Shown here: positions 714 to 39,204 of the stretch, piece after piece
Numbering within the stretch: position 1 is the first letter of the stretch
Layout of the letters: each line of letters opens with the position of its first letter
Sequence record: NZ_CP020440.2
Direction: 5' to 3' (one strand)
From: a plasmid
DNA length: 64,000 nt
Made by a program: the position numbers and the translations under genes
The notes under the pieces: generated by a model
Told to the model about the DNA's origin: nothing
Databases searched by the model: none
The model's input: the letters and a program-made list of their open reading frames with translations, nothing else

Positions 714-716
714 GCC

Positions 717-10604: not shown

Positions 10605-10673
10605 GGGCGGTTTCCTTTTTCGGCGCGGGGTGGTCTGCGCTATGCTGGGGCTGGGACGGACGGAGATGCCCCG

Positions 10674-12159: not shown

Positions 12160-12236
12160 GCGGGTCCGGGTAAGCCAGCCAGCGCCACGCCAGCCAGCCG
12201 CCCATTCGGACAGTCAGCCAGACAGGAGAAAACAGA

Positions 12237-12433
12237 TGACCCATTCCGCATGCAATGCCTGCGCATTCTATGAGGATCACGTCGCGAACTCTGCCAGCAC
12301 GCTGTCGGATTCAGGTCTTTGCCGGGCCAATCCGCCGGTGACGCAGAAGGACCCGGAAAGCCGTGGATACTGGCCGGTGGTCAAGTCCAGCGACTGGTGC
12401 GGGCAATACACCGCCGCCTTCGCGGCCGAGTGA
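12237..12433 (+). CDS. Small (65 aa) cysteine-containing hypothetical protein (CxxC plus two further Cys)
   Basis: GGAG RBS 7 nt before the ATG, own promoter-like element and a clean intrinsic terminator; GC3-rich codons; no recognisable family. Confidence 0.5.
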
Positions 12434-12461
12434 TCGCGGCACTGATGCCGGCACGGATGCA

Positions 12462-12486
12462 GGGCAGCCTTCGGGCTGCCTTTTGC
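12462..12486 (+). terminator. Intrinsic terminator after the small ORF
   Basis: GGCAGCC-ttcg-GGCTGCC followed by TTTTG. Confidence 0.7.
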
Positions 12487-12614
12487 ATTGGGGGCAAACC
12501 GCCCTGACACGGGATAGTCATTGCGCAGGCCGTTGCACATCCCGCAGGACCACCGTCCTATGGGACGAAAGGCGGCGGGCCAGACCTGCCGCGCAATCGA
12601 CAGGAAAGCCGGAC

Positions 12615-13700: not shown

Positions 13701-13820
13701 GGCGCGGAAATCGCCCCGACCGCGGTCGAAATCGACGAAAACGGCGTCGTGCGCGATCTGCCGCCGGACGGAACCGATCCCGCCCCCGCCACGCCCGCCG
13801 ACGCAGGGACGAACTAGGCG

Positions 13821-19559: not shown

Positions 19560-19563
19560 CGCG

Positions 19564-20409: not shown

Positions 20410-20420
20410 GATGTGTTTCC

Positions 20421-20756
20421 TCAGGCTGCGGCGTTGCGGCGGATCAAGCTGGCGTCGATCAGGACGCGGCCCTGCTGGACGCGGATGGGATAGGTGCGGA
20501 CAGTGCCCTGGTCGGCGCCCTGCGCCGCGCCGGTGTTCATGTCGAAGACCCAGTTGTGCAGCGGGCAGGTGACGGACGTGCCGTGCACGATGCCCTCGGA
20601 CAGCGGGCCGCCCTTGTGCGGGCAGCGGTCGTCCAGCGCAAAGACCTGGTCGTCCATGGTGCGGAACACCGCCACGCAGCCCTGCGCGGTCTTGACTAGA
20701 CGCGCGCCCTGCCGGGGGATGGCGTCCAAGGGTCCGATGTCAACGAAGATGGTCAT
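20421..20756 (-). CDS. nasG: Nitrite reductase small subunit (Rieske 2Fe-2S)
   Basis: CPHKGGPLSEG...CPLHNW Rieske motifs; 111 aa; start M65 of the ORF, overlapping the nasB stop. Confidence 0.85.
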   Translation of the reverse strand: MTIFVDIGPLDAIPRQGARLVKTAQGCVAVFRTMDDQVFALDDRCPHKGGPLSEGIVHGTSVTCPLHNWVFDMNTGAAQGADQGTVRTYPIRVQQGRVLIDASLIRRNAAA

Positions 20757-23182: not shown

Positions 23183-23195
23183 GGCTTGCTCCTTC

Positions 23196-24404
23196 TCAGG
23201 CGGCTTGCAGGGCGGGGGCGGGCAGGCGGCGGATCGAGGCGTGCATCCAGATCGCGCAGGCCGCGACCAGCAGGAACAGGACCGCGAAACAGCTGGACCA
23301 CAGCCCGGTCTGGTCCTTGAGCCAGCCAAACAGCAGCGGCAGCACGAAGCCGCCCAGGCCGCCGATCATGCCCACGAGCCCGCCGACCGCGCCAACGTTC
23401 TGCGGATAATAGGTCGGGATGTGCTTGTAGACGGCGGCCTTGCCGAGGCTCATGAAGAACCCGAGGACGAAGATCACCGCCAGGAACAGGCCCACCGGTA
23501 CGCCCGCGGGTAGCGCTAGGATCGCGGTCGCGGCCAGCGAGACGGCAAAGGTCGCATACATCACCTTGCGCGCGCCGATCCGATCCGACAGCACGCCGCC
23601 ATAGGCGCGAAAGATCGAGGCAGGGATGGAGTAGGCCGCGCCGACCATGCCCGCGACCTTGACGTCAAAGCCATAGACGCCGATCAGGTAATGCGGCAGC
23701 CACAGCGCCAGCGCGACGAAGGCCCCGAAGCTGAAGAAGTAATAGGCCGAAAAGCGCCAGACCTGCAGGTTCTTCAGCGGCGCGAATTCGGCCCGCAGGC
23801 TGCGCAGCGGCGCGCGAGTGCCCCGGCGGGCGGCGGTCACCGGGTCGTCCTTGCTGAAGGCCCAGAACAGCACCGCCGTCAGTGCCAGCGCGGCGGCCCA
23901 GATCTGCGCGGTCGCCTGCCAGCCCCAAGCCAGCATCACGAAGGGGGCGACGAACTTGGTCAGCGCCGCGCCGATGTTGCCGACGCCGAAAATGCCAAGC
24001 GCGGTGCCCTGCCGCGCGCCCTCGAAAAAGCGCGACACATAAGCCACGCCCACCGCGAAGGACCCGCCCGCCAGGCCCACACCCAGGGCCGCGACCAGCA
24101 ACTGGGGATAGGTCTCGGCCCGGCTCAGCAGGAAGGTGGCAAGCGCGGCGGCCAGCATGGTCAGCGTATAGACGCGCCGCCCGCCCAGCCGGTCGGTGGC
24201 GACGCCCAGCACGATGCGGACCAGCGATCCGGTCAGGATGGGCATGCCGGCCAGCAGGCCGAACTGCGTCTCGGTCAGGTTCAGCTCCCTGCCGATCTGG
24301 ATGCCTATGATGGAAAAGATCGTCCAGACGGCAAAGCAGATGGTGAAGGCAAAGGTCGACAGGGTCAGCGCGCGGCTGGAATCGGCGGGGGATGTGGCGG
24401 ACAT
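23196..24404 (-). CDS. nasA: Nitrate/nitrite transporter (MFS, NNP family)
   Basis: 12-TM MFS with NNP signature region (GxxxNxGGG-like), about 400 aa; start M18. Confidence 0.85.
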   Translation of the reverse strand: MSATSPADSSRALTLSTFAFTICFAVWTIFSIIGIQIGRELNLTETQFGLLAGMPILTGSLVRIVLGVATDRLGGRRVYTLTMLAAALATFLLSRAETYPQLLVAALGVGLAGGSFAVGVAYVSRFFEGARQGTALGIFGVGNIGAALTKFVAPFVMLAWGWQATAQIWAAALALTAVLFWAFSKDDPVTAARRGTRAPLRSLRAEFAPLKNLQVWRFSAYYFFSFGAFVALALWLPHYLIGVYGFDVKVAGMVGAAYSIPASIFRAYGGVLSDRIGARKVMYATFAVSLAATAILALPAGVPVGLFLAVIFVLGFFMSLGKAAVYKHIPTYYPQNVGAVGGLVGMIGGLGGFVLPLLFGWLKDQTGLWSSCFAVLFLLVAACAIWMHASIRRLPAPALQAA

Positions 24405-24680
24405 GGATGCTCCGATGGCGAAACTGGGGGCAGTGGCTGTCGGAAAGCGGCACAAGCGGTCGGGACGCCCCTTGGGGGTCCTGCGGCGATCCGCAGCGTG
24501 ACGCTTTCATCGGGAATGCCGCATCGTTGCGAGCGGGCCTGTGGCGCGCCATTGCGCCGGGCCATGTCCCTTGATCGCCTGTGCCGGGTGCCATCGCAAG
24601 CCTGGGATCCGGCCCAACGCAGGAAAACGGCCTGCCGCGCGAAAATGATGCGGGCGCGGCACCCGTTGCCTGCGGTTTCG
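24405..24680 (-). promoter_or_regulatory. Structured 5' leader between nasS and nasA; candidate NasT (ANTAR) antitermination target
   Basis: In mRNA sense several short hairpins, including GGCGC-AAUGGC-GCGCC (hexaloop with A1/G4) and CUGCGG-aucg-CCGCAG; the position is equivalent to the nasA leader bound by NasT in P. denitrificans. Confidence 0.4.
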
Positions 24681-25859
24681 TCAGTTTGTGGACGCGGGCG
24701 CGGCGGGGTCGAAGGTGAAGCCGTCGAAGAACCCGTCGGCACCCAGAATCATCTGGCCCTTTTCGGCGGCGACCAGGCGGTCTTGGGGCAGGGCGCCTTC
24801 GACCCGGGACGAGGCACCGGGCAGCGCCGCGCCGGCCGGGCGCAGGTGCTGGCGATAAAGGTCGGTGCGGAAATGGCCCATCGCCGCCTGCATGGCGGGG
24901 CCGGGGTCCAGACCGTGCCGTTGTGCAATGCGGTGGGCGAAGAGGGCCGCGCGGCTTTTCCACGGAAAATTCGCCGCGCCATCGTGGAACGCGATGAAGT
25001 GCGCGTCCTGCCGCATGTCGCCGTCGGGCGTGACCATGAGGCGGCCGGTCAGGCCCCGCTCGGCCAGTTCGGGGGACAGGTCCAGATAGGCCGGGCGGGA
25101 CAGGATGTCGGCGGCGGTGCCACGGTTCTGCGCCTCGTCCAGCCAGCGGCAGGCCCGCCAGACGGCGCGCATCAGGCGGCCGGTGATCTCGGGCCGGCCC
25201 TCGGCCAGGTCGCGGCGCATGACCAGCCCCTTTTCCGGGGCCGCCGCCCAGATCGCATTGCCCGGCAACAGCAGCGCGGCAAGGCCGCGTTCGACCGCGA
25301 ACGAGGCCCAGGGCTCGCCCACGCAAAAGGCGTCGACCTCGGCCGAGGCGAGGGCGTCGGCCATCATCGGCGGCGGCACGGTCGTCACGCGCACATCGCC
25401 GACGCCGCAGGCGCCCAGCCAATGCGCGATCAGCTCGTGCTGGGTCGAAAAGGCAAAGGGCACCGCCACCCGCAGCCCCTGGGGCGCGACGGCGCGCAAC
25501 GCAAGACCGGCGGCACGGGCGTCGTCAAAGGCGAAGTCTTGGCCCCGCGCGCGCAGCCGGGCGGTCAGATCGCGGCTGACGGCGACCGCCTGGCCCCCCT
25601 GCGACAGCACCATCAGCAGGTCCAGCGCCGGCATCCGGGGGCCCAGACCCATGGCCTGCGCGACCGGCATCGGCGCCAGCATATGCGCGGCATCGACCAG
25701 CCCCGCGCCCAGCATGTCGCGGCTTTGCGCCCAGGCGGTCTGGCGCACCAGATCGAGGCCCAGCCCTTCCTCGGCGGCAAAGCCCAGCTCATGGGCGACG
25801 ACCAGGGGCGCGGCATCGATCAGCGGCAGATAGCCCAGGCGCAGCGGCGTCAGGTTCAT
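24681..25859 (-). CDS. nasS: Nitrate/nitrite-binding sensor protein (NrtA-like periplasmic-binding fold), partner of NasT
   Basis: NMT1/NrtA-like substrate-binding domain without a signal peptide; 392 aa; its stop overlaps the nasT start. Confidence 0.8.
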   Translation of the reverse strand: MNLTPLRLGYLPLIDAAPLVVAHELGFAAEEGLGLDLVRQTAWAQSRDMLGAGLVDAAHMLAPMPVAQAMGLGPRMPALDLLMVLSQGGQAVAVSRDLTARLRARGQDFAFDDARAAGLALRAVAPQGLRVAVPFAFSTQHELIAHWLGACGVGDVRVTTVPPPMMADALASAEVDAFCVGEPWASFAVERGLAALLLPGNAIWAAAPEKGLVMRRDLAEGRPEITGRLMRAVWRACRWLDEAQNRGTAADILSRPAYLDLSPELAERGLTGRLMVTPDGDMRQDAHFIAFHDGAANFPWKSRAALFAHRIAQRHGLDPGPAMQAAMGHFRTDLYRQHLRPAGAALPGASSRVEGALPQDRLVAAEKGQMILGADGFFDGFTFDPAAPASTN

Positions 25860-26440
25860 GTCAGAAGCCCCGCCGCCATGACCAGCTGCTGGGCGATCTC
25901 GGCCACGCGCTTGCCCTGGTCCATCGCGGTCTTGCGCAGCAGGGCATAGGCCGCTTCCTCGTCGATTCCGCGCGCCTTCATCAGGATCGCCTTGGCGCGG
26001 TCGATGATCTTGCGCTCCTCCAGCGCGGTGCGCATCGACGCCAGTTCCGCCCGCATCCGCTGGAACAGGTGAAAGCGCGCGATGGCGGCGTCCAGGATCG
26101 GCTTCAGCCGGTCGGCGCGCAGCCCGTCGACGACATAGGCGGAAATGCCGGCCTCGATCGCGGCGCGGGTCAACTGTTCGTCGGACTGGTCCACGAACAT
26201 GGCGACCGGCCGCTCCATGGGGCCCGAGGCCAGCGCCAGTTCCTCGAGGATGTCGCGCGAGGGGTTCGCAAGGTCGATCAGCACCACGTCGGGGCGCAGT
26301 TCGGCGATGCGGCGCGCCAGGCCGGTTTCGCCCGCGATGATGCGGATGTCGTGATCGCCCGCATCGCGCAAGCCGGCCATGATCGGTTCGGCCCGGTCCG
26401 GGTCTGGTTCGATGATGACGATTGATAGCCGCTTGTCCAT
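25856..26440 (-). CDS. nasT: ANTAR-domain response regulator (RNA-binding antiterminator)
   Basis: REC domain plus C-terminal ANTAR (RKIIDRAKAILMKARGIDEEAAYALLRKTAMDQGKRVAEIAQQLV); start M20. Confidence 0.85.
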   Translation of the reverse strand: MDKRLSIVIIEPDPDRAEPIMAGLRDAGDHDIRIIAGETGLARRIAELRPDVVLIDLANPSRDILEELALASGPMERPVAMFVDQSDEQLTRAAIEAGISAYVVDGLRADRLKPILDAAIARFHLFQRMRAELASMRTALEERKIIDRAKAILMKARGIDEEAAYALLRKTAMDQGKRVAEIAQQLVMAAGLLT

Positions 26441-26533
26441 CTGCCTTCCGGGCCGGTGCCTTGCCGGATCAATGGCAAGCCGCGCGCCGGAATGCATCGC
26501 ATGGAGGCGCGGTATCGGTGGCTGGGGCGGTGT

Positions 26534-26552
26534 CTGCCCATGTGCTGGGCAG
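26534..26552. promoter_or_regulatory. Dyad-symmetric element CTGCCCA-N5-TGGGCAG about 95 bp upstream of nasT (NtrC-site geometry)
   Basis: Perfect 7-bp inverted repeat with 5-bp spacer, same 6-5-6 architecture as the NtrC consensus TGCACC-N5-GGTGCA. Confidence 0.3.
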
Positions 26553-26575
26553 ATCGCGCGCCGGATGCCCGTCCG

Positions 26576-29218
26576 TCAGGCATCCTCGCGCACGGCGCTG
26601 CCCGCGCCGGGCTGGCGGGCAATCAGCCGGGCGGCATCGGCCAGGGGCAGCAGCGGCGGCATCGCGGTGGGCGTGGCCAGGTAATGCGGGCTCCAGTCCG
26701 GATCGAACTTGTCCTTGAAGGCGCGCAGCCCCTCGAACTTGTAGAAGCTGCCGCCGTGGCGAAAGATCAGCGCCCCGAAGCGGTCCCAGACCCGGCGCGA
26801 ACGGTTCGGGTCAAGCCCGGCCAGCGGCGCCATGCCCAGCGAAAAGGCCGGATAGCCGCGTTCCTTCAGCGCCAGCATCAGGGCGGTGAACATGAACTCC
26901 ATCGTCCCCGAGGGCGCGTCCGAGCGGTGCCGCATCAGGTCGATCGAAGCCATGGCGTGGCGGTCGGTCGTCATGATGTTGCCGAATGCGACCAGCCGGC
27001 CATCCTGGCGCACCAGCGCCAGGGCCCAGCGATCCAGCCACTCCGGGTCGAAGCGGCCGACCGAAAAGCCCTTCTCGCGCGATTTCTTGGCCGCCAGCCA
27101 TTCGTCGGAAATCGCCCGCAGTTCGGCCATCAGGGCGGGGTCGTGCGGCGGCATGGCGATGTCCAGCGTCAGCCCGTCCCGGCCCGCGCGGGCATAGGTG
27201 GTGCGCAGCCGCTTGCGCTGCGGCCCTTCCAGGGTAAAGCGGCGCAGGTTCACGACCGCCTCTTCGCCCATCTTGTGCAGCGTCATGCCCAGGTCCAGCA
27301 TCAGCGGCACGGCCTCGGGCCCGACCTCGTAAAAGATCGGCCGGGCGCCGGCGCGGCGGGCGGCATCGACAAAGCTGTAGGCGACCTCCTCGCAGGCTTC
27401 CTCATCGCCCACGGGGGGGCCATAGGCGATCCAGCTGGAGCCCGCGACGCCGAACATCAGGAAAGCGTGCTGGTTGTCGGACAGCATGATCGCCTTGTCC
27501 CCGGTCAGCACGAAGCCCGCGTCGGGGTTCTCGCCCGCCATGGCGATCTGGCCGGCGATTTCCAGCGTGCGCGGATCGGGGGGCACGGGGCGAAAGCGCG
27601 GGATGCGCAGCAGCAGGAACAGCGAGCCGAGGCCGACCAGCAGCCCCGCCAGCAGGCCCGAGCGCAGCGCGCGCGGCGCGCGTTCGTCGGCCGCGAACTG
27701 CCACCAGAGTTCGTTCGAATAGGGGGTTTCCTTGTGCGAAAAGAACAGCACGAAGCCAAAGCCCACCAGCGCCGCCACGATCAGGGCGATCCAGCCCGGC
27801 GTCAGCGCCGAATGGGTCAGCATCGAGCGGCGGTGAAAGGCGCGGCGGAACGGCATCAGGATCAGCACGAACAGGACCAGCGCGCCGGCCTGCTGCAGGT
27901 CCGCGCCCTCCAGCACGGCAAAGACCGCGCCAGCGAGCATTGCCCCGACCGTCAGCCAGAACGCCCCCAGGCTGCGCCGCACGACGCCCAGCGACAGCAC
28001 GATCAGCGCCGCGCCAAGCGCGCTGGACAGCAGCACCGAGCCTTCGACGAAGGCCAGCGGAAAGAAGCTTTCGGCCAGTTCCGAGGTCTCGGTCATTGGC
28101 GGCAGCACGGCCGAGACGCTCATCCACAGGCCCGAACCGAAGACCATGACGGCCAGCAGCAGCGGCGCCAGCGGCGTCACGGCGCGCAGGGCGGGCTCGA
28201 TGGCCGCAAGCCCGCGACCCAGGGCCGATGCGGGGCTGCGCCGGCCCAGCACGCGCCAGCCCTCGTAGACGGCAAGCAGCACCAGGGCCAGGGCAAAGGG
28301 CATCAGGTAATAGATCAGCCGGAACAGCAGCAGGGCGGCAGCCACGGTGTCGATGGGCACGCTGGGCGGCATGGCGGCGATGATGACGCTTTCAAAGACG
28401 CCGACGCCGCCTGGAACGTGGCTCAGGACGCCCGCCATGGTGGCGGCGGCAAAGATCGCCAGGAAGGTCGGAAAGCCGATCCCCGCGTCGGGCAGCAGGA
28501 CATAAAGCGTCAGCGCCGAAAAGCAGATGTCGCCCAGGCAGATGAACAGCTGCGTGCCCAGCACCGACAGGCCCGGCGCGTGCAGACGGAACCGGCCGAT
28601 GCGCAGTTCGCGCCGGGTGATCCCGGCCCAGAGCAACGGCAGGATGACCGCCAGGATCGCCGCCAGCGCGAACAGCCGGATGCTGGCCTGGGGCAGGGGC
28701 AGCAGGGGCCCCAGCGCGCCCGGGTGCATCGCCAGCGCCGTGAAGCCCAGCAGCGAGGCCGCGATCCCGAAGGACGCCGCCGTGAAGGTCGAGATCGCCG
28801 CGATGTCATAGCCGTCCAGCCCCAGGCCCGAATAGACCCGCCAGCGCACCGCCCCCCCGGTGATCGCCGAAAGTCCGATGGTGTTGCCAAAGGCATAGGC
28901 CATCAGCCCGCCGGTCATCGCGACCGGCAGGGGCAGGGGCTTGCCGATATGGCGCAGTGCCGACCAGTCATAGCCCGCCAGGAACAGATAGCCCGCAACC
29001 GTGGACAGGATCGCAAGCCCCGTCACATGCCAGGGCGTGGCGCGGATCTGGTTCGCGACCTCGTGGATGTTGACCGGGGCCAGCAGCTTGTTCAGCGCGT
29101 AAAGCCCCGCCGCGAACAGCAGCGAGGCCACGACATAGGGCAGGAACTGCCGCCAGAGCGCGGGCGAGCTCGGGTCCTCGATCGGGGCAGGCCGCGGGGG
29201 CGTGGGCTGGGCGCTCAT
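26576..29218 (-). CDS. mprF: Bifunctional lysyl-phosphatidylglycerol synthase/flippase MprF (LpiA-like)
   Basis: 880 aa; N-terminal multi-TM flippase domain, C-terminal lysyl-tRNA-dependent transferase domain (DUF2156-like, ...FYKFEGLRAFKDKF). Confidence 0.85.
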   Translation of the reverse strand: MSAQPTPPRPAPIEDPSSPALWRQFLPYVVASLLFAAGLYALNKLLAPVNIHEVANQIRATPWHVTGLAILSTVAGYLFLAGYDWSALRHIGKPLPLPVAMTGGLMAYAFGNTIGLSAITGGAVRWRVYSGLGLDGYDIAAISTFTAASFGIAASLLGFTALAMHPGALGPLLPLPQASIRLFALAAILAVILPLLWAGITRRELRIGRFRLHAPGLSVLGTQLFICLGDICFSALTLYVLLPDAGIGFPTFLAIFAAATMAGVLSHVPGGVGVFESVIIAAMPPSVPIDTVAAALLLFRLIYYLMPFALALVLLAVYEGWRVLGRRSPASALGRGLAAIEPALRAVTPLAPLLLAVMVFGSGLWMSVSAVLPPMTETSELAESFFPLAFVEGSVLLSSALGAALIVLSLGVVRRSLGAFWLTVGAMLAGAVFAVLEGADLQQAGALVLFVLILMPFRRAFHRRSMLTHSALTPGWIALIVAALVGFGFVLFFSHKETPYSNELWWQFAADERAPRALRSGLLAGLLVGLGSLFLLLRIPRFRPVPPDPRTLEIAGQIAMAGENPDAGFVLTGDKAIMLSDNQHAFLMFGVAGSSWIAYGPPVGDEEACEEVAYSFVDAARRAGARPIFYEVGPEAVPLMLDLGMTLHKMGEEAVVNLRRFTLEGPQRKRLRTTYARAGRDGLTLDIAMPPHDPALMAELRAISDEWLAAKKSREKGFSVGRFDPEWLDRWALALVRQDGRLVAFGNIMTTDRHAMASIDLMRHRSDAPSGTMEFMFTALMLALKERGYPAFSLGMAPLAGLDPNRSRRVWDRFGALIFRHGGSFYKFEGLRAFKDKFDPDWSPHYLATPTAMPPLLPLADAARLIARQPGAGSAVREDA

Positions 29219-29400
29219 GGTCTCGTGCTGGAATCGGGGCCGGGTCTGTCGTGTCGGGTCGGATAGGTTCCCGGCTGCATAGAGCAGCCGGCCGTCGCGG
29301 AAAAGTCGATACAGCGGTATGGTAGATCGCGCCGCCTGGGCTTGCCCCGGCGCGCGCCATCCGGCAGGGTCCGGCGGCCGCGGGCAAGGGGGGGACGACG

Positions 29401-30561
29401 ATGAGCAAGGGACAGGGCATGGACGGACGCAGCCTGCTGCGGGGCCTCGGGCCCGCGATTGCCCCGGGTCGTCCGGTCGAGGCGCTGCGCGCGGCCCTGG
29501 GCGCGGCGCTGGGGCTGGGCGTCTCGGGGTTCTTCATGCTGGCGGGCCGCCTGGACCCGGTGCTGGGGCTTTATCTGATCGCGCCCTTCGGGGCCAGCTC
29601 GGTCCTGCTGTTCGCGGTCCCGAACAGCCCGCTTGCGCAGCCCTGGTCGGCGCTGGTCGGGAACGGCGCCGCCGCCGCCGCGGGCGTGCTCGCCTGCATG
29701 GTCATTCCCGATCCCCTGGCGCGGGTCGCCGTGTCGGTCGGCGGCGCCATCGCCCTGACCATCATGCTGCGCGCCGTGCATCCGCCCGCCGGCGCCGTCG
29801 CCATGACCGCCGCCCTGAACCCCGAGCCGATCGAGAAGCTGGGCTTCGGCTTCGTGCTGGCGCCGGTGCTGACGGGAACGCTGATCCTGGTCGGCATGGC
29901 GATGATCTATGCCCGGCTGACCGGCCGCCACTATCCGCTGCGCCAGTTCGACGAACCCGGCCCTGCGGGCACCGCCGACCACCCCGCGCCCGAGCGGCTG
30001 GGCCTGGCGCGCGAGGAGCTCGAGGAGATCCTGCGCAACTATCGCCAGTCGCTGAACCTGGGGGTCGAGGACCTGGCGCGGCTGATCGGCGCGGCCGAGA
30101 TGCAGGCCGCGGGCCATCGCGCCGACCCCCTGCCGGCCGAGGCCTTCATGTCGCGCGACCTGGTGACCGTCGCCCCGGAAACCCCGCTGGCCGAGGTGGC
30201 CGAACTGTTTCGCGCCCACGGCTTCACCTCGATCCCGGTGGTCGAGGAGGGGGACAAGTATCTGGGCATCATCTTCCAGATCGACCTGATCCGGCTGGCG
30301 GCGCATCCCGGCCCCGGGCTGCGCGCCCGGCTGCTGTCCCAGCCCGAGGCGCTGAGCGCGGGCCAGGTCATGCGCCGCGACATTCCCCATGCCGCCCCGG
30401 AAAGCACCATCGGCGCGCTGCTGCCGCTGCTGTCGGGGCCGGGCGCCCATGCGGTGCCGATCCTGAACCGCGGGCGCATCCGGGGCATCGTGACGCAGAC
30501 CGACCTGATCGCGGCCCTGGCCCGGCAGTTGCTGCGGCCCCGCGCCGCGCCGCCCGCCTAA
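29401..30561 (+). CDS. HPP-family integral membrane protein with a C-terminal tandem CBS-domain pair
   Basis: N-terminal 4-TM HPP domain (..HPPAGA.. motif), two CBS domains (FMSRDLVTVAP..., VMRRDIPHAAP...); divergent from mprF. Confidence 0.8.
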   Translation: MSKGQGMDGRSLLRGLGPAIAPGRPVEALRAALGAALGLGVSGFFMLAGRLDPVLGLYLIAPFGASSVLLFAVPNSPLAQPWSALVGNGAAAAAGVLACMVIPDPLARVAVSVGGAIALTIMLRAVHPPAGAVAMTAALNPEPIEKLGFGFVLAPVLTGTLILVGMAMIYARLTGRHYPLRQFDEPGPAGTADHPAPERLGLAREELEEILRNYRQSLNLGVEDLARLIGAAEMQAAGHRADPLPAEAFMSRDLVTVAPETPLAEVAELFRAHGFTSIPVVEEGDKYLGIIFQIDLIRLAAHPGPGLRARLLSQPEALSAGQVMRRDIPHAAPESTIGALLPLLSGPGAHAVPILNRGRIRGIVTQTDLIAALARQLLRPRAAPPA

Positions 30562-31265
30562 CGGCGGCGCAGCCAGTCCTGCATGTCGCGCTCGGCGCTG
30601 CGCAGCGCCTCGGCGTTCAGCGCGCCGCTGGTCAGGGCGCAGGCGACGGCGCGGACGCGCTTGTTCATGACGCCTTCGGCCACGGGCAGTTCGACCGCCA
30701 GCTTTTCGTAAAGCGACAGCAGCCGGTTCTGCACCGTGCGCTCCGACATGCCGCGCCGGCGCGCGATCTCGCGGTCGGGCAGGCCAAGCGCCATGTCCAG
30801 CAGAACGGTATATTCGCTTTCGCTCAGCCCCTGCGCGGGGCGCGACTGGCGCTGTTGCAGGCGGTGGATCTCGCGGTCGACGACCACCTGGCCTTCGACC
30901 AGCACGGCGCGCATGGCCAGGTGCAGCCGCTGGACCGGCGCGGTTTTCAGCACATAGCCATAGGGCGAGCCGGGCGGCACGATGCGCGTCAGCCCGCGCA
31001 GATAGGCTTCGTCGGCGTAGTTCGACCAGAACAGGATGCGGGTTTCCGGGCGTTCGGACCAGATCGTGCGGGCGGCGTCGATGCCGTTGCGTTCCTTCAT
31101 CTGCAGGTCCATGACGACGGCCAGTACGCCCTTGCGGGCCATCGCCTCGCCCTCGCGGCCGTTTTCCGCGGTCAGGATCTGGCTGGCCTCGGGCAGGGCC
31201 TGCCCGACCGCGTCGCGCAGGAAGGCCGCGTGCAGGGGGTCGTCCTCGACCAGCAGGATCTTCAT
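30558..31265 (-). CDS. Response regulator, NarL/FixJ family (REC + LuxR-type HTH)
   Basis: MKILLVEDDP...D receiver domain and C-terminal LuxR HTH LSESEYTVLLDMALGLPDREIARRRGMSERTVQNRL; start M150, overlapping the kinase stop (ATGA). Confidence 0.85.
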   Translation of the reverse strand: MKILLVEDDPLHAAFLRDAVGQALPEASQILTAENGREGEAMARKGVLAVVMDLQMKERNGIDAARTIWSERPETRILFWSNYADEAYLRGLTRIVPPGSPYGYVLKTAPVQRLHLAMRAVLVEGQVVVDREIHRLQQRQSRPAQGLSESEYTVLLDMALGLPDREIARRRGMSERTVQNRLLSLYEKLAVELPVAEGVMNKRVRAVACALTSGALNAEALRSAERDMQDWLRRR

Positions 31266-32476
31266 GGCGGGCCCCCCGCGGGCAGGCTGACCGAAACGCT
31301 GGTGCCGGTCCGGCCCGAACGGACCGAAAGCCGCGCGCCGATCAGCTGGGCGCGGGTGCGCATGTGCGACAGGCCGCCTTTCTTGCGGCTGCGGCGCACG
31401 TCCTCGGGCAGGCCGCAGCCATCGTCGGCCACGGTGATGCGCAGGCGCGGCTGGGCCGCGATGCGCACGTCGATGCGCCCCGCGCGGGCGTGGCGGCCGG
31501 CGTTGTTGATCGCCTCCTGCACGATGCGGAACAGGGCGATCCTGGCCACCGGGTCCAGCGCGTCGGGGGCGCCCTGGCTGTCGTCCTGCACCTCGACCTG
31601 GGCGTCGCCCGCGGCCCGTTCCAGATGCACCCGCACCGCATGGGCAAAGCCGAACATGTCCAGGATCGAGGGCACCGCCGTGTCGATGATGCGCCGCAGG
31701 TCGGCCACGCAATCGTCCAGCCGCGCCAGCACCGTTTCCGCGTCCAGCGCGCCGGGGCGCGACAGGTCGCGCATCAGCCGCGACAGGTCGGCCAGGGTCT
31801 GGTCGTGCAGGTCCATGCCGATGCGCTGGCGTTCCTGTTCCAGCGCCTGGGTCAGGTCGCGCGCGCCCAGCCGCAGCCCTTCCTCGCGCGCGCGGGCCTC
31901 GGTTTCGACGATGGCGGCCTGGCGCGACCGTTCCGCCTCGCGCAGCGCGAACAGATAGGGCGAGATCAGGTCCGCCACATAGCGCGCCGCCGCCACGTCG
32001 CGCGGCCCATAGCGCCCCGGCGCAAAGGACGAGATGCTGAGCGCGCCGATGATGTCCCCCGCCACCACCAGCGGCGCATGGACCCGGGCGCGCAGGTTGT
32101 GGTCATGGATCGGGGCGCAGAACACGCCCGGAAAGGCAAAGCGCGGGTCGGCGGTCGCGTCCTCGGTCAGGATGTGATCGACATGGCCCCACAGCAGCTC
32201 GCGGATCGGGCTGTTCTGGACGCCTGCCGTCTCCTTGCGGCCCCAAGCGGTCTCGATCCCGGTCTCGTAGGCGGCCGACAGGGTTCCGTCGTGGCGCAGC
32301 AGGCACAGGTCCAAGTGATCATAGGGCAGGAAGCGGCTGATTTCCTGCGCGACCGAGCGGATCGCCGACAGGAAGTCCAGCCGCCCCGCCAGCGCGCGCG
32401 AGATGCGGAACAGATGCGGCAGCAGCGGCCCGGGATCGACCTCCTGGTCCGAAAGCTCGCTCATCCTCTCGTGCAC
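31262..32476 (-). CDS. GAF-domain sensor histidine kinase (HisKA_3/NarX-DegS type)
   Basis: N-terminal GAF-like domain, H-box RIGMDLHDQTLADLS, HATPase_c (IVQEAINNAGRHA...DDGCGL); the likely true start is M5 at 32464. Confidence 0.8.
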   Translation of the reverse strand: MHERMSELSDQEVDPGPLLPHLFRISRALAGRLDFLSAIRSVAQEISRFLPYDHLDLCLLRHDGTLSAAYETGIETAWGRKETAGVQNSPIRELLWGHVDHILTEDATADPRFAFPGVFCAPIHDHNLRARVHAPLVVAGDIIGALSISSFAPGRYGPRDVAAARYVADLISPYLFALREAERSRQAAIVETEARAREEGLRLGARDLTQALEQERQRIGMDLHDQTLADLSRLMRDLSRPGALDAETVLARLDDCVADLRRIIDTAVPSILDMFGFAHAVRVHLERAAGDAQVEVQDDSQGAPDALDPVARIALFRIVQEAINNAGRHARAGRIDVRIAAQPRLRITVADDGCGLPEDVRRSRKKGGLSHMRTRAQLIGARLSVRSGRTGTSVSVSLPAGGPP

Positions 32477-32692
32477 GGCGCGCCTCCGCTGGTGTCCCTC
32501 GGGGGCGACGATGCCACAGGCGCCGGCCTGCGTCCAAGCGGCGCCGCGCCGAACTTGCGGGTTTCCGCAAACGGCGCGCGGAAAGATGCAGGTCCGGGCC
32601 CAGTTCCGGTCTAGGCAGCCTGCCGTCCCGCCCTATCCTTGACCCCGGAGGACGGCGCCCGGCGCCGGGATATGAAGGGGGAGGACTCAAGG

Positions 32693-33703
32693 ATGACCCG
32701 CAAGGGACTGCTGCTGACGGCCGCGACGATCCTGGCCATGGGCGGGACGGCGATGGCCGACACCGCGCAAAAGCGCATCGCACTGTCGAACAACTATGCC
32801 GGCAACAGCTGGCGCCAGGCCATGCTGGAAAGCTGGAAGCGCGTGACCGACAAGGCCGTGGCCGACGGCATCGTCGCCGCCGCTGACGCCTTTACCACCG
32901 CCGAAAACCAGGCGACGGAACAGGCCGCGCAGATCCAGAACATGGTCCTGCAGGGCTATGACGCGATCGTGGTCAACGCCGCATCGCCCACCGCGCTGAA
33001 CGGCGCCATCAAGGAGGCCTGCGACGCGGGCATCACCGTCGTCAGCTTCGACGGCATCGTGACCGAGCCCTGCGCCTGGCGCGTCAAGGTCGATTTCAAG
33101 AAGATGGGCGCGGACGAGATCGCCTATCTGGCCGGCCGCCTGCCCGACGGCGGCAACCTGCTGGAGATCCGGGGCCTGGCCGGCGTGTCCGTCGACGACG
33201 AGATCCACGCGGGCATCGAGGAAGGCGTCAAGGCCCACCCGAACTTCAAGGTCGTGGGGTCCGTGAACGGCGACTGGGCGCAGGACGTGGCGCAGAAGGC
33301 GGTCGCGGGCATCCTGCCCTCGCTGCCCGAGATCGCGGCCGTGGTGACGCAGGGCGGCGACGGCTATGGCGCGGCGCAGGCCTTTGCCGCCGCCGGGCGG
33401 CCGATGCCGATCATCATCATGGGCAACCGCCAGGACGAGCTGAAATGGTGGGCCGAACAGCGCGACGCGAACGGCTATGAAACCATCTCGACCTCGATTG
33501 CGCCGGGCGTCTCGACGCTGGCGTTCTGGGTCGCGCAGCAGATCCTGGACGGGGCCGAGGTGCCCAAGGACCTGACCGTGCCCTTCCTGTCGGTGACGCA
33601 GGAAACCCTGGACCAGGCGCTGAAGGATACGCCCGAAGGCGGCGTCACCAACGTGGACTACACGCTGGACGACGCCAAGAAAGTGATTGCCGGAACCGAC
33701 TGA
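32693..33703 (+). CDS. Sugar ABC transporter periplasmic substrate-binding protein (RbsB/LacI-type PBP)
   Basis: Signal peptide MTRKGLLLTAATILAMGGTAMA, Peripla_BP_4-like fold; GGAGG RBS. Confidence 0.8.
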   Translation: MTRKGLLLTAATILAMGGTAMADTAQKRIALSNNYAGNSWRQAMLESWKRVTDKAVADGIVAAADAFTTAENQATEQAAQIQNMVLQGYDAIVVNAASPTALNGAIKEACDAGITVVSFDGIVTEPCAWRVKVDFKKMGADEIAYLAGRLPDGGNLLEIRGLAGVSVDDEIHAGIEEGVKAHPNFKVVGSVNGDWAQDVAQKAVAGILPSLPEIAAVVTQGGDGYGAAQAFAAAGRPMPIIIMGNRQDELKWWAEQRDANGYETISTSIAPGVSTLAFWVAQQILDGAEVPKDLTVPFLSVTQETLDQALKDTPEGGVTNVDYTLDDAKKVIAGTD

Positions 33704-35190
33704 TGGCAGGCATCGAAGGCGAGGATCGGGCCGGGGCGCAAGCCCCGGCAGCGGATGGAGGCGGCGCGGTCGTGCGCCTTGAGACGGCGTCGAAAACCTT
33801 TGGCGCGCTCAGGGCGCTGGATCGTGTGGACCTGGCCATCCGCCCCGGCGAATGCCTGGGGCTGGTCGGCCACAACGGGGCGGGAAAATCGACCCTGGTG
33901 AACCTTGTCACCGGCCTTTTCGCGCCTTCGGACGGGCGTGTGGTCTATCCCGGCGCCGACGGTCCCCTGCAGGCCGGCGTCCGTGCCATTTCCCAGGAAG
34001 GCACGCTCTGCCCGAACCTGACGGTGCTGGAAAACCTGTCCGTCGTGCAGCGCGACCTGACCGGGCCGGGCTGGCGCGGGCGGGCCGCGGACCGGATCGG
34101 AGCGGCGCTGGACGCGATCTTTCCCGGCCACCGTATCCGCCCCGACATGCTGGTCGCCGACATGACCTTGGCCGAGGCGCAGATGGCCGAGATCGCCATC
34201 GGCTTCGCCGAAGGGCCCATCCCCGCCCGCCTGGTGGTGCTGGACGAGCCCACCTCGTCGCTGGACGCCTCGATCGCGGCGCAGCTTCTGGCGCATGTCC
34301 GCCGCTTTTGCGCCGAAGGGGGCGCGGTGGTCTTCATCTCGCACATGCTGGGCGAGATTTTCGCCGTCGCCAGCCGCATCGTCGTCATGCGCGATGGGCA
34401 GGCGATCGCCGACCGGCCGGCGCATGGCTTCAGCCGCCGCGGTCTGGTCGATGCCATGGGCCATGTCGCGGCCGAGGACGATCGCCCCGCCACGCCCGCC
34501 GCGCTTGCCCGCGCCCTGGGCGACAAGAGCGCCGCGATCCTGCGCACCCCCGAAGGGATCGAGGCGCGGCGCGGCGAGATCGTCGGCCTTGCCGGCCTTG
34601 CCGGTCACGGCCAGGCCGAGGCGCTGGCGCGGTTCTATCTGGCGCAAAGTTCGGACTGGCGCAGTTCGGCCCGGCCCCGCGCGGCCTTTGTCGCCGGCGA
34701 CAGGCGGCGCGACGGGATCATGCCGGTCTGGTCGATCCGGCGCAACCTGACGCTGGCCGCGCTGGACACGCTGCTGCGCCGGGGCCTTGTGGACCGCGAC
34801 CGCGAACGCGAGATCGGCGCGCACTGGCAGCGCCGCATCGGCATCCGCACGCCCGACATGGGCAACCCCATCTTGTCGCTGTCCGGCGGCAACCAGCAAA
34901 AGGCGCTGTTCGCGCGGGCCCTGGCCACCAGCGCGCCGGTGATCGTCATGGACGACCCGATGCGCGGCGTCGACATCGGCACCAAGACCGAGGTCTACGA
35001 CATGATCCGGCACGAGGCCGCGCAGGGCCGCACCTTCCTGTGGTATTCGACCGAGATGGACGAGATCCGCAACTGCGACCGCGTCTTCGTGTTCCGCGAC
35101 GGCGCCATCTCGGCCGAACTCGAGGGTACGGCCATCACCGAGGAAAACGTCCTGGCCGCCAGCTTCGAATTCGGGGAAACCGCCGCATGA
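33703..35190 (+). CDS. Sugar ABC transporter ATP-binding protein (tandem ABC domains)
   Basis: Two Walker A motifs (GHNGAGKST; second domain), two signature motifs; 495 aa as in RbsA/XylG. Confidence 0.85.
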   Translation: MAGIEGEDRAGAQAPAADGGGAVVRLETASKTFGALRALDRVDLAIRPGECLGLVGHNGAGKSTLVNLVTGLFAPSDGRVVYPGADGPLQAGVRAISQEGTLCPNLTVLENLSVVQRDLTGPGWRGRAADRIGAALDAIFPGHRIRPDMLVADMTLAEAQMAEIAIGFAEGPIPARLVVLDEPTSSLDASIAAQLLAHVRRFCAEGGAVVFISHMLGEIFAVASRIVVMRDGQAIADRPAHGFSRRGLVDAMGHVAAEDDRPATPAALARALGDKSAAILRTPEGIEARRGEIVGLAGLAGHGQAEALARFYLAQSSDWRSSARPRAAFVAGDRRRDGIMPVWSIRRNLTLAALDTLLRRGLVDRDREREIGAHWQRRIGIRTPDMGNPILSLSGGNQQKALFARALATSAPVIVMDDPMRGVDIGTKTEVYDMIRHEAAQGRTFLWYSTEMDEIRNCDRVFVFRDGAISAELEGTAITEENVLAASFEFGETAA

Positions 35191-36116
35191 CACGGCTGAT
35201 CAACCCGCGCCTGGCGCTGCCGGTGCTGTCGCTGGCCGTCCTGGTCGCCGCCGTCTTCTGGTTGCAGCCCCGCGCCATGAGCTATGTGGGCGTGAACCTG
35301 CTGTTCAATCTGGCGGTGCCCATCGCGCTGGCGACGGTGGCGCAGATGGTCGTCATCATGGTGGGCGACATCGACCTGTCGATGGGCGCCTTCGTCAGCC
35401 TGGTGGCCTGCATCACCGCCGCCATCCTGCCAGTCAATCCCGTGCTGGGGGCCTTGATGCTGGCGGGCTGCGTGCTGGCCTATGCCGCGCTTGGCGCGCT
35501 GATCGAGGCGCGGGGCCTGCCGGCCATCGTCGTGACCCTGGGCATGTCCTTTGTCTGGGGGGGTGCGGCGGTGTTGATCCTGCCCTCGCCCGGAGGGACG
35601 GCGCCGGGCTGGCTGACCGGGGTGATGAAGGCCAAGCCACCGCTGGTCCCGATGGCCATCGTTGCCAGCGTGCTGATCGCCGCCGTGGCGCATCTGGTCA
35701 TCATGCGCTCAAGCTTCGGGGTGCGGCTGCGGGCGCTCGGGGGCAATGCGCGGGCCCTGTCGCGCGCGGGCCGCTCGACCGTGGCGCTGCGGGCCTGGGC
35801 CTATGCGCTGGCGGGGCTGTTCGCGGTGCTGTCGGGGATGGCGCTGGTCGGGCTGACCACCTCGGGCGACGCCAATATCGCGCTGCGCTATACGCTTTTG
35901 TCCATCGCGGGCGTGATCCTGGGCGGGGGCGAGTTCACCGGCGGGCGCGTCTCGCCCATCGGCGCGGTGATCGGGGCGCTGACGCTGACGCTGGCGGGCA
36001 GCTTCCTGTCCTTCCTGCGGCTGTCGCCCGACTGGCAGATCGGCGCCCAGGGCGCGATCCTGATTCTGGTGCTGGCGGCGCGGCTGGTCTTGCGCCAGGC
36101 GGAGAAACGTTCATGA
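35187..36116 (+). CDS. Sugar ABC transporter permease (BPD_transp_2 family)
   Basis: Multi-TM permease; start ATG overlaps the upstream stop; 309 aa. Confidence 0.8.
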   Translation: MTRLINPRLALPVLSLAVLVAAVFWLQPRAMSYVGVNLLFNLAVPIALATVAQMVVIMVGDIDLSMGAFVSLVACITAAILPVNPVLGALMLAGCVLAYAALGALIEARGLPAIVVTLGMSFVWGGAAVLILPSPGGTAPGWLTGVMKAKPPLVPMAIVASVLIAAVAHLVIMRSSFGVRLRALGGNARALSRAGRSTVALRAWAYALAGLFAVLSGMALVGLTTSGDANIALRYTLLSIAGVILGGGEFTGGRVSPIGAVIGALTLTLAGSFLSFLRLSPDWQIGAQGAILILVLAARLVLRQAEKRS

Positions 36117-37060
36117 CCATGACCATGACCTTGCACAAGGCGCCCTGGTTCTGGGCCTGGGTCGCGGCCCTCGCGGCGTTCCTGGCCACCTGGTCGCTGA
36201 GCACCGGAGGCGGCGGAGCCGCCCTGGCGGTCGCTGCGCTGACCTTCGGCAGCTTCTCGGTCCTGACCGGGCTGGGGCAGATGCTGGTCATCACCCTGGG
36301 CCCCGGCAACACCGACCTGTCGATCCCCGCCACGATGACGCTGGCCGCCACCCTGTCGCTGAAGCTGATGGCGGGCGCGGGCGGGATCTGGATCGCCGCC
36401 GGGCTGGTGGCGGCGCTTGCCATCGGGGCAGGGGTCGGGGTCGTCAACTTCGCGCTGATCCGGCTGCTGCGCATCCCGCCGATCATCGCCACGCTGTCGG
36501 CCAGTTTCCTTTACCAGTCGCTGGCGATCTGGTCGAACCGCGGTCTGCGCATCAAGCCGCCCGCGGCGCTGGCCGAGTTCACCACCGGCCGGGCGCTGCT
36601 GGGTGTGCCGAACCTGGCCTGGGTGGCCCTGGCGATCAGCATCGTGTTCTGGGTGCTGCTGAACCGCTCGGGCTTTGGCCGGCGTGTCTCGGCCATCGGG
36701 CAGAATCCGCGCGCGGCGCGGCTGGCGGGGGTGCCGGTCGCCCGCACGTCGGCCGCGACCTATGTGATCTCGGCGGTGATGGCGGCGCTCGCCGGCTTCC
36801 TGCTGGCCTGCTTCTCGGGCGGCGCCGCGCTGAACATGGGGGCCGAGTTCCTGCTGATGTCCATCGCCGTCACGGTGATCGGCGGCTCGTCCATCGCGGG
36901 GGGCAATTCCAACGTGCCCGGCATCTGGGCGGGCGCGCTGTTCATGTATCTGATCGTCTCGATGCTGAACTCCTACGGGCTGGGGGCCGGGGTGCGGCTG
37001 CTGTCGACGGGGATCATCATCATCGCCATCGTCGCCGTGGCCAGCGGCAGAAAGGGCTGA
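36113..37060 (+). CDS. Sugar ABC transporter permease (second subunit)
   Basis: Multi-TM permease, 315 aa, translationally coupled. Confidence 0.8.
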   Translation: MTMTMTLHKAPWFWAWVAALAAFLATWSLSTGGGGAALAVAALTFGSFSVLTGLGQMLVITLGPGNTDLSIPATMTLAATLSLKLMAGAGGIWIAAGLVAALAIGAGVGVVNFALIRLLRIPPIIATLSASFLYQSLAIWSNRGLRIKPPAALAEFTTGRALLGVPNLAWVALAISIVFWVLLNRSGFGRRVSAIGQNPRAARLAGVPVARTSAATYVISAVMAALAGFLLACFSGGAALNMGAEFLLMSIAVTVIGGSSIAGGNSNVPGIWAGALFMYLIVSMLNSYGLGAGVRLLSTGIIIIAIVAVASGRKG

Positions 37061-37064
37061 ACCC

Positions 37065-37982
37065 ATGTCCATCTATGACCGGCGCGACCCGCGCTTTCGG
37101 GCGCTGATCCATCCGAACGCGGGGCTGCACCAGATCGGCAGCGGCTTTGAATGGGCCGAGGGGCCGGCCTGGTTTCCCGCCGCCCAGATGCTGCTGTTTT
37201 CCGACATCCCGGCGCATCGGATGATGCGCTGGACCGCGCAGACCGGCTGCAGCATCTTTCGCGAGGATTCGGGCTATTCGAACGGCAACACCCGCGACCC
37301 GCAGGGTCGGCTTGTCACCTGCCACCACGGGCTGCGCGCGGTGACGCGGACCGAACACGACGGCAGCCTGACCACACTGGCCGCCCAAGGCCAGGGCCGG
37401 CGGCTGAATTCCCCCAACGACGTGGTGGTGAAGGCCGACGGCTCGGTCTGGTTCACCGATCCGACCTATGGCATCCTGTCGGACCTCGAAGGCTACAAGG
37501 CAGCGCCCGAACAGGCCGGCAGCTTCGTCTGGCGCATCCCGCCCGGGGGCGGCGCCCCGTTGCCGGTCTGCAAGGACTTCACCCAACCGAACGGGCTGTG
37601 CTTTTCGCCCGACGAAAGCCTGCTCTACATCGCGGAATCGGGGTCGAGCCACGATCCCTCGGTGCCCCCGGTCATCCGGGTCTATGACGTCGCGGGCGAT
37701 GGGCTGGGACAGGGCCGCGACTTTGCGACCGTCGATGCCGGCCTGCCCGACGGCATCCGCTGCGACGCGGCGGGCAACCTCTGGTCCTCGGCCGCCGACG
37801 GGGTGCATGTCTTTGCCCCCGACAGCACGCTTCTGGGCAAGATCCTGGTGCCCGAGGTGGTCTCGAACCTGTGCTTCGGCGGGCCGCGCGGCAACCGGCT
37901 GTTCATCACCGCGACGACCAGCCTTTACATGCTGGCCGTCGATGCCTGCGCCGCCGGCTGGCCCGGTCAGGGCGCGGTATAG
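37065..37982 (+). CDS. SMP-30/gluconolactonase/LRE-like sugar lactone lactonase
   Basis: EGPAW, SNGN, NGL and DG motifs of the six-bladed beta-propeller lactonase family; 305 aa. Confidence 0.8.
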   Translation: MSIYDRRDPRFRALIHPNAGLHQIGSGFEWAEGPAWFPAAQMLLFSDIPAHRMMRWTAQTGCSIFREDSGYSNGNTRDPQGRLVTCHHGLRAVTRTEHDGSLTTLAAQGQGRRLNSPNDVVVKADGSVWFTDPTYGILSDLEGYKAAPEQAGSFVWRIPPGGGAPLPVCKDFTQPNGLCFSPDESLLYIAESGSSHDPSVPPVIRVYDVAGDGLGQGRDFATVDAGLPDGIRCDAAGNLWSSAADGVHVFAPDSTLLGKILVPEVVSNLCFGGPRGNRLFITATTSLYMLAVDACAAGWPGQGAV

Positions 37983-38808: not shown

Positions 38809-39204
38809 TCACAGATAGCGGCCCCGCCGCTGCAGCACCTCGATCTGGTAGCCGTCCGGGTCGGCGACGAAGAAGAAGCGCGCGATCACCTCGCCCCCCG
38901 GGGCAAAGTCGACCAGTTTGCGCGGCGCCAGGCCCAGGGCGCTCAGCCGCGCATGTTCAGCGTCGACATCCGCGACCGAAACGGCCAGATGCCCATAGCC
39001 GTCGCCCAGGTCATAGGGTGCCTCGCGGTCCTTGTTGATCGTCAGCTCCAGTTCGAACCCGGTTTCGTCATTGGACAGATAGACCAGCGTGAAGCTGTCG
39101 AAATCCAGCCTTTGCGCCACCCGCAGGCCGAACGCCTGGCCGTAGAAATCAACCGAGCGTGCCTCGTCCAGCACCCGGATCATCGAGTGGATCATCTTTG
39201 CCAT
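38809..39204 (-). CDS. VOC/glyoxalase-family protein (lactoylglutathione lyase-like)
   Basis: 131 aa, glyoxalase I-like HSMIRVLDEARSVDFY...HLAVSVADVD motifs. Confidence 0.75.
   Translation of the reverse strand: MAKMIHSMIRVLDEARSVDFYGQAFGLRVAQRLDFDSFTLVYLSNDETGFELELTINKDREAPYDLGDGYGHLAVSVADVDAEHARLSALGLAPRKLVDFAPGGEVIARFFFVADPDGYQIEVLQRRGRYL

Follow-up and report, generated by a model that had tools for sequence, protein, structure and literature searches.

The window analysed here is a 64-kb stretch of plasmid DNA (NZ_CP020440.2); it shares ~99% identity with plasmids of Paracoccus yeei, among them pTT13-2 (NZ_CP024424.1). At positions 29401-32476 it carries the gene of an HPP-family membrane protein with a C-terminal pair of CBS domains (hereafter HPP-CBS), followed by the genes of a NarL-type response regulator and a GAF-domain histidine kinase. 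The original prediction had read these three genes, which lie beside the nitrate-assimilation (nas) cluster, as one nitrate- or nitrite-responsive transport module. Profile searches confirmed all of the gene and domain content that it described, namely the HPP domain with its C-terminal CBS pair, the GAF kinase, the NarL-type regulator, mprF and nasTSABGHC, and also that mprF and nasTSABGHC lie to the left of HPP-CBS, with nas ~3 kb away. The overlap of the kinase stop and the regulator start as ATGA was likewise read in the sequence. The features, with Pfam and NCBIfam matches or the annotation of the Prokaryotic Genome Annotation Pipeline (PGAP) in brackets, are the following:

16956-26440, minus strand: nasT-nasS-nasA-nasB-nasG-nasH-nasC, nitrate/nitrite assimilation, given as context only (Pfam and PGAP)
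26576-29218, minus strand: mprF, lysyl-phosphatidylglycerol synthase/flippase (NCBIfam bifunc_MprF, 837 bits against a cut-off of 600)
29274-29288, no strand: inverted repeat GCTGC-ATAGA-GCAGC in the mprF/HPP-CBS intergenic region
29401-30561, plus strand: HPP-CBS membrane protein, 386 aa (Pfam TM_HPP and CBS pair)
30558-31265, minus strand: NarL/LuxR(GerE)-type response regulator, 235 aa (Pfam Response_reg and GerE)
31262-32476, minus strand: soluble histidine kinase with GAF, HisKA_3-type and HATPase_c parts, 404 aa (Pfam GAF, HATPase_c)
32555-32570, no strand: 16-bp palindrome TTGCGGGTTTCCGCAA, a candidate operator in the kinase/binding-protein intergenic region
32693-37982, plus strand: CUT2-type importer/SMP-30 operon, divergent from the kinase and made up of the next four entries
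32693-33703, plus strand: CUT2-type binding protein (Pfam Peripla_BP_4; PGAP)
33703-35190, plus strand: double-ABC ATPase (two Pfam ABC_tran matches; PGAP)
35187-36116 and 36119-37060, plus strand: two permeases (Pfam BPD_transp_2; PGAP)
37065-37982, plus strand: SMP-30/gluconolactonase-family protein (Pfam SGL; PGAP)

HPP-CBS and the regulator-kinase operon are convergent, and their stop codons (TAA/TAG) overlap at 30558-30561; therefore no common promoter is possible. The upstream region of HPP-CBS (29219-29400) is divergently shared with mprF, and that of the kinase (32465-32692) is divergently shared with the binding-protein gene. No terminator-like structure was found between the HPP-CBS and regulator genes, and transcription that runs on past the end of one gene would be antisense to the other. 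The start and stop of HPP-CBS are identical to those of the PGAP 'HPP family protein' in NZ_CP024424.1, while the 404 aa of the kinase are counted from a GTG at 32476 and the PGAP start is at 32464. The nas cluster gave Pfam matches to ANTAR, NMT1_2, MFS_1, Pyr_redox_2 with NIR_SIR, Rieske_2, Form_Nir_trans and Molybdopterin.

The conservation of this neighbourhood was examined in 80 HPP-CBS loci, one per species, which carry orthologues of 53-99% identity and were taken with 10 kb of flank on each side. By tblastn with the window proteins, the kinase, the regulator, the binding protein and the SMP-30 gene were found near HPP-CBS only in P. yeei and in none of the 79 other species, so the predicted pairing of the convergent HPP-CBS gene with the kinase and regulator was not confirmed. 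Clustering of the neighbouring open reading frames in the 80 loci gave no partner that occurred in more than 14 of them. Similarly, a Pfam census of the immediate neighbours counted 83 families upstream and 106 downstream among 77 genes on each side, and no second response regulator was among them. The commonest immediate neighbours were a glycosyltransferase (11 loci, the P. denitrificans clade), GntR (7), MprF (5), pantoate ligase (5) and TauE (4). The four closest relatives retain mprF and HPP-CBS as a divergent pair; they are P. litorisediminis, P. laeviglucosivorans, P. aestuariivivens and P. limosus. Neither nas nor the kinase/importer genes were found near HPP-CBS in these four, indicating that both were brought beside an older pair in P. 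yeei.

We found that the kinase and regulator keep other company. In all nine genomes inspected (eight genera in two orders; P. yeei plus the annotation of eight kinase-homologue records), they are linked to a CUT2-type ABC importer and an SMP-30 gene. The seven genes of P. yeei run in the order regulator and kinase on one side, then divergently binding protein, ATPase, permease, permease and SMP-30, and exactly this order recurs in seven of the eight other genomes, those of Sagittula sp. MA-2, R. leguminosarum Ta6, S. meliloti RCAM1750, Roseibium aggregatum, Pseudosulfitobacter sp., Aureimonas sp. AU20 and Shinella sp. HZN7. Plasmid pRPC2 of Rhizobium sp. BG4, which carries the most distant kinase (45% identical), has the same partners in a rearranged, co-directional cassette, in which the kinase and regulator are followed by a 4-oxalocrotonate tautomerase-family gene, SMP-30 and the ABC importer (7980-15753 of the fetched locus). 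The gene beyond the regulator varies from genome to genome (repC, a MocR-type regulator, a hypothetical gene, GNAT, LysR, an ABC ATPase, a polysaccharide deacetylase); it is an HPP gene in P. yeei and in none of the eight other cassette-bearing genomes.

Nucleotide comparison pointed the same way. In a megablast search of positions 26500-33800 against 72,556 plasmids, three P. yeei plasmids matched throughout, together with 189 other records (118 from Rhizobium, 51 from Sinorhizobium, and Roseibium, Sagittula and others). Among the matches listed, all 27 non-Paracoccus rows were confined to a stretch that starts within the kinase (in some of them, in the regulator) and ends in the binding-protein gene, and their DNA identity was 75-81%. 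With the kinase as the query, tblastn reached 233 plasmid records, nearly all at 45-55% identity over the full length. Among solved structures, the binding protein is closest to a CUT2 binding protein (4pe6) and the SMP-30 protein to the bacterial gluconolactonases 3e5z and 3dr2, and we infer from these families that the substrate of the cassette is a sugar or a sugar-lactone. The cassette is widespread on plasmids and chromids of at least eight alphaproteobacterial genera, and it is apparently uncharacterised; no paper describing the seven genes was found in the literature.

The kinase/binding-protein intergenic regions of the cassettes have a palindrome in common, TTGCGGGnnCCCGCAA. Among the eight cassettes of the divergent type it is present with zero or one mismatch in six genera and with three in Rhizobium and Sinorhizobium, and throughout the eight genera it precedes the binding-protein start by 132-197 bp. 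At zero or one mismatch, the P. yeei copy at 32555-32570 stands alone in the 64-kb window; when as many as three are allowed, the window holds one more site, at 11384-11399, which is not near HPP-CBS or nas. Even at three mismatches, no copy was found upstream of HPP-CBS or of the nas genes in the window. Regulators with a GerE-type helix-turn-helix bind such palindromes as dimers. On the simplest view, the two-component system would control the divergent importer/lactonase operon through this candidate operator.

By domain composition, the kinase and regulator are predicted to form a NarL/FixJ-type two-component system. The regulator matched Response_reg (40.2 bits) and GerE (26.3 bits), both above the cut-offs, and its best NCBIfam matches, MctR and NarL, were all far below theirs (NarL 45 against 250). 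The kinase matched HATPase_c with 61 bits, and a HisKA_3-type H-box, ERQRIGMDLHDQ, can be read in its translation; Pfam HisKA_3 itself gave no match to the kinase at E up to 0.01. In NCBIfam, MctS, UhpB, NarQ and LiaS align to residues 198-400, with MctS reaching 92 bits against a cut-off of 700. The NarQ and NarX matches (55 bits against 553 and 50 against 578) cover only the core, residues 245-399, and do not reach equivalog level. No hydrophobic N-terminal segment can be read in the kinase sequence, which is therefore a cytoplasmic and not a periplasmic sensor.

Among known systems, DesK-DesR and the GAF-containing DosS/DosT-DosR are alike in the kinase core, with DesK in the PDB aligning to residues 213-400 and DevS/DosT aligning to the core as well, and they belong to the same HisKA_3/NarL family with cytoplasmic sensing. 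The MctS-MctR system of Rhizobium leguminosarum is alike in both proteins, the kinase core aligning to MctS and the regulator to MctR, and MctSR, like the P. yeei pair, adjoins transporter genes that are presumably under its control. Unlike these systems, however, the P. yeei kinase has a single N-terminal GAF domain and no membrane segments, its partners are a CUT2 ABC importer and an SMP-30 lactonase, and the equivalog scores are far below the cut-offs. NarX and NarQ differ further, since the P. yeei kinase has no match at the level of their periplasmic P-box sensor and no transmembrane helices, and the similarity is limited to the core. NreA is the nitrate-binding GAF protein of the NreABC nitrate/oxygen sensing system, and the original prediction had taken the GAF domain of the kinase for a nitrate or NO sensor by analogy with it. 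We found that this likeness stays at the family level, as it comprises only the generic GAF fold class and the NarL-type output, whereas the P. yeei GAF is fused to the kinase, has sugar-uptake genes as genomic partners and has no detectable sequence similarity to NreA. When the GAF region (residues 1-200) was searched against the PDB at E up to 10, only the NifA GAF (E 0.19) and an unrelated exonuclease were returned; NreA, DosS and DosT gave no match in this sequence search, and a comparison at the fold level was not made.

The other half of the interval is an ordinary member of its family. TM_HPP (PF04982) matched HPP-CBS at residues 24-179 (about nucleotides 29470-29937) with an E of 1.6e-40 and a score of 138.7 bits against a cut-off of 27.2, and profile positions 5-157 of 157 were covered, which is the full length. 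The HPP motif itself is H127-P128-P129; it does not vary among 20 orthologues, and in a set of 150 representatives it is nearly invariant. The CBS pair, at about residues 247-375 (about nucleotides 30139-30525), was matched by Pfam in two stretches with an E of 6e-25. In the PDB, the CBS pairs of MJ1225, AcuB and Rv2626c align to residues of about 248-372, and 4esy, a CBS fragment entered there under the name 'CBS domain containing membrane protein', aligns to residues 223-300. The second CBS domain carries the motif GIVTQTD (G362-D368, pattern G-h-h-T-x-x-D), which is invariant in the 20 orthologues and which we take to fit a ribose-phosphate-binding signature. Weak NCBIfam matches of the CBS part were to mgtE, proV and ClcB.

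HPP with a CBS pair is a common architecture, and nothing sets the P. yeei protein apart. Of 1471 homologues scored by word-sharing, the best 120 all had HPP and CBS, and orthologues across Rhodobacterales are 53-69% identical. The HPP domain alone as the query gave 2845 representatives of 50%-identity clusters, with CBS present in 86 of the best 150. The protein has the same architecture as the HPP+CBS family of 'CBS domain-containing membrane proteins', for which no experimentally defined function was found in the literature. MgtE, CNNM/CorC, ClC and OpuA resemble it in that a membrane transport domain is fused to a cytoplasmic Bateman module, but the HPP transmembrane domain is unrelated to theirs and gating in HPP-CBS is putative. 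Within the HPP family, Synechococcus NitM and Arabidopsis AtNITR2;1 are given as nitrite transporters (Maeda et al. 2014, as cited in PMC7438415). The P. yeei protein shares with them the PF04982 domain, matched over its full length, and the HPP motif; it differs from them in its C-terminal CBS pair and in belonging to an alphaproteobacterial HPP-CBS branch, and its transport function is putative. A literature search on HPP-CBS, Paracoccus or denitrification found no study of the HPP-CBS subfamily, and where papers on Bradyrhizobium and Rhodobacter mention a 'CBS domain' in general terms, no connection to HPP-CBS could be made. No solved HPP transmembrane domain was found by PDB sequence search. 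An AlphaFold2 model of HPP-CBS, built on an alignment of 20 sequences, had a mean predicted local distance difference test score (pLDDT) of 63, with 75-91 in the CBS region, and was left out of fold searches.

Taken together, we consider it likely that the interval holds two unrelated transcription units, made up of ordinary members of known families, that abut by chance on the P. yeei plasmid, and that the kinase and regulator are the regulatory arm of the cassette. The adjacency occurs only in P. yeei, so the juxtaposition is no more than chance would give. Judged by sequence, the best explanation for the kinase/regulator genes and the importer/lactonase genes is a mobile seven-gene cassette. 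The GAF domain of the soluble kinase would respond to a metabolite in the cytoplasm, for which the imported sugar or sugar-lactone, or a compound derived from it, is the most likely candidate, and the kinase would then phosphorylate the regulator. The regulator may then bind the palindrome between the two divergent operons and control the CUT2 importer/SMP-30 operon and probably its own. HPP-CBS, on the other side, would be a stand-alone gene expressed from the region divergently shared with mprF. Its HPP transmembrane domain may form a channel or transporter for a small solute, probably a small anion, and an adenosine-type ligand on the C-terminal CBS (Bateman) pair would set its activity. 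By analogy with the cyanobacterial and plastid HPP proteins, nitrite is the leading candidate; as a best single guess for the substrate it is a tentative one, which we would expect to be wrong more often than right. Thus, with regard to the predicted ligand-gated nitrite transporter, membership of the HPP family is solid and gating through the CBS pair is reasonable to infer, while the tie to N-oxide genes, described below, is weak.

Several points weigh against this interpretation. The palindrome is degenerate in Rhizobium and Sinorhizobium, where it has three mismatches, and it was not recognisable in the rearranged cassette of BG4; position, symmetry and conservation are the whole of the case for its proposed role as an operator. 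The membrane part of the HPP-CBS model has a pLDDT of about 40-70, mostly below 70, and lends no structural support to the idea of a channel. Moreover, regulatory wiring specific to the P. yeei lineage would be compatible with the absence of conserved synteny.

We then considered HPP-CBS by itself, as a nitrite or N-oxide anion channel or exporter that was recruited beside N-oxide genes and that serves nas or nitrite protection in P. yeei, a reading that we regard as possible but improbable. Nitrate or N-oxide clusters (nas, nar, nap, nos) were found within 10 kb of HPP-CBS in 7 of the 80 species, in a search seeded with the nas proteins of the window and then with seeds from the loci, nir and nor being outside the screen:

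P. yeei: nas near HPP-CBS
P. siganidrum: narJHG-narK divergent from narR, with narR directly upstream of HPP-CBS
Rubellimicrobium: Crp/FNR regulator and fused narK near HPP-CBS
Rhodobacterales metagenome-assembled genome: narH near HPP-CBS
Oceaniglobus ichthyenteri: nosRZDFY divergent from a Crp/FNR regulator, with the regulator directly upstream of HPP-CBS
Albimonas: napD-napA with a Crp/FNR regulator near HPP-CBS
Seohaeicola: nasT-nasS-nrtA near HPP-CBS

The arrangements are all different, and therefore the associations look like independent events. Six such loci were observed among the 79 non-query species against an expectation of one or two, with a Poisson p of roughly 0.001-0.02, under a rough null of 1.5-3 clusters per 4.5-Mb genome and uniform placement, which treats the species as independent and ignores the concentration of accessory genes on small replicons (possibly chromids). 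This is a weak statistical hint that ties the large HPP-CBS family to nitrate/N-oxide metabolism, and it weakly supports a possible nitrite or N-oxide link for HPP-CBS alone, in which the kinase is not involved. The literature on other bacterial HPP proteins bears on HPP-CBS circumstantially and in the same direction: two HPP genes were up-regulated under nitrite limitation in Kuenenia (PMC7438415), a Desulfovibrio HPP gene adjoins hcpR1 and is induced by NO (PMC5701242), and an M. smegmatis HPP gene has a GlnR site (PMC3662644).

On the other hand, no nitrate or N-oxide genes were found near HPP-CBS in 73 of the 80 loci or in six further metagenomic or genomic contexts, and the four closest relatives with the mprF pair are without nas nearby. 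None of the 80 HPP-CBS genes has an FNR-type or NNR box within 300 bp upstream, and across these loci FNR/NNR boxes, NtrC half-sites and cassette half-sites showed no meaningful enrichment upstream of HPP-CBS. The leader of HPP-CBS differs from that of nasA as well. Using a custom script, we found two adjacent hairpins with the hexaloops AATGGC and AACGAT (A1/G4) in the nasS-nasA leader (about 24519-24558, minus strand), which is the pattern expected for a target of ANTAR (NasT) antitermination in the Paracoccus NasT/NasS regulon. With the same script, an A1/G4 hexaloop hairpin pair was absent from the HPP-CBS, kinase and binding-protein leaders. No Rfam family matched within 23000-34000 at E up to 1, the nasS-nasA hairpins included. 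In addition, the characterised nitrite-transporting HPP proteins are reportedly HPP-only, without CBS domains.

In P. siganidrum (locus 105-11137) and O. ichthyenteri (1011-11125), the regulator directly upstream of HPP-CBS is of the Crp/FNR family and co-directional with it. A nitronate monooxygenase gene was noticed near HPP-CBS in two of the six extra contexts and in none of the 80 species loci, and was put down to chance.

A wider form of the same idea, that the HPP-CBS proteins of Rhodobacterales are nucleotide-gated channels for nitrite or small N-oxide anions, repeatedly and independently recruited beside N-oxide clusters and unrelated to the kinase, is in our judgement somewhat more doubtful still. 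If it were true, bacterial denitrification and assimilation would gain a nitrite conduit under CBS control.

Less probable by far is that HPP-CBS is tied to membrane-lipid or envelope remodelling, through mprF in P. yeei and through a glycosyltransferase and an oxidoreductase in the P. denitrificans clade. The divergent mprF neighbour recurs in five Paracoccus species, and alignment showed that the mprF/HPP-CBS intergenic regions of all five have in common the inverted repeat GCTGC-N5-GCAGC, followed by a CGG-AAAG block. In P. yeei this repeat, at 29274-29288, is unrelated to the cassette palindrome, and it may be a regulator site for mprF, HPP-CBS or both. In 11 loci, a GT2/GT21-type glycosyltransferase lies directly downstream of HPP-CBS and co-directional with it, followed by a GFO/epimerase fusion. 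However, these 16 loci represent only two clade-specific arrangements, so they count as two evolutionary events, most other species have neither mprF nor a glycosyltransferase as a neighbour, and a mechanistic link to HPP-CBS is not known. In the P. denitrificans/versutus clade, HPP-CBS and the co-directional glycosyltransferase and GFO-IDH-MocA/epimerase fusion genes (about 11200-14330 of the fetched loci) follow one another with short gaps, usually with a GntR/FCD regulator upstream of HPP-CBS, and the arrangement of the three genes may be an operon.

That the GAF kinase senses nitrate, nitrite or NO and, via the NarL-type regulator, controls an HPP-CBS nitrite transporter accessory to nas is very unlikely: the genes are physically adjacent and 3 kb from nasTSABGHC, the HPP family has a published nitrite-transport member, and the regulator and kinase match NarL/NarQ families weakly, but HPP-CBS converges on the regulator-kinase operon and has no promoter in common with it, none of the 79 other species has the adjacency, the constant partner of the kinase/regulator pair is the ABC/SMP-30 cassette, no copy of the cassette palindrome lies upstream of HPP-CBS or of nas, the NarX/NarQ matches cover the kinase core only at 50-55 bits against cut-offs of 553-578, the kinase has no N-terminal hydrophobic segment and hence no periplasmic sensor, and its GAF is without similarity to NreA or any solved GAF in the PDB sequence search. 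A new transport module that senses nitrite would have been of note in a nas system as well studied as that of Paracoccus. The neighbourhood is not conserved, however, an outcome that the original prediction had itself named as speaking against it, and the kinase and regulator belong to a sugar-type cassette; the evidence indicates that the proposed module is not real, and the locus illustrates cleanly how genes that lie side by side on a mosaic plasmid can suggest a false link.

Some smaller observations concern the surroundings of HPP-CBS. Directly upstream of HPP-CBS, members of the Salipiger/Alloyangia group have a TauE/SafE-family anion exporter whose N-terminal extension measures ~250 aa (about 8400-9940 of the loci). 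The sigma-54-like pattern TGGC-N8-TGCW occurs upstream of HPP-CBS in 13 of the 80 loci against about two in shuffles, but these sites lie within coding genes (GntR, TauE) that related species have conserved upstream of HPP-CBS, and we rejected the pattern as an artefact of shared ancestry. The regions beyond the cassette or nas were compared with those of relatives as a check for a simple insertion, and the comparison showed only the VOC neighbour of P. mangrovi and P. lutimaris. In P. yeei, a VOC/glyoxalase-family gene lies at 38809-39204 on the minus strand, 8 kb from HPP-CBS; in P. mangrovi and P. lutimaris, the immediate upstream neighbour of HPP-CBS (locus positions 9501-9890 and 9467-9856) shares 82-83% identity with this VOC gene, which points to an older VOC/HPP-CBS linkage that was broken by rearrangement in P. 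yeei. A glyoxalase-family gene stands at the same place in a related metagenomic contig (9500-9895).

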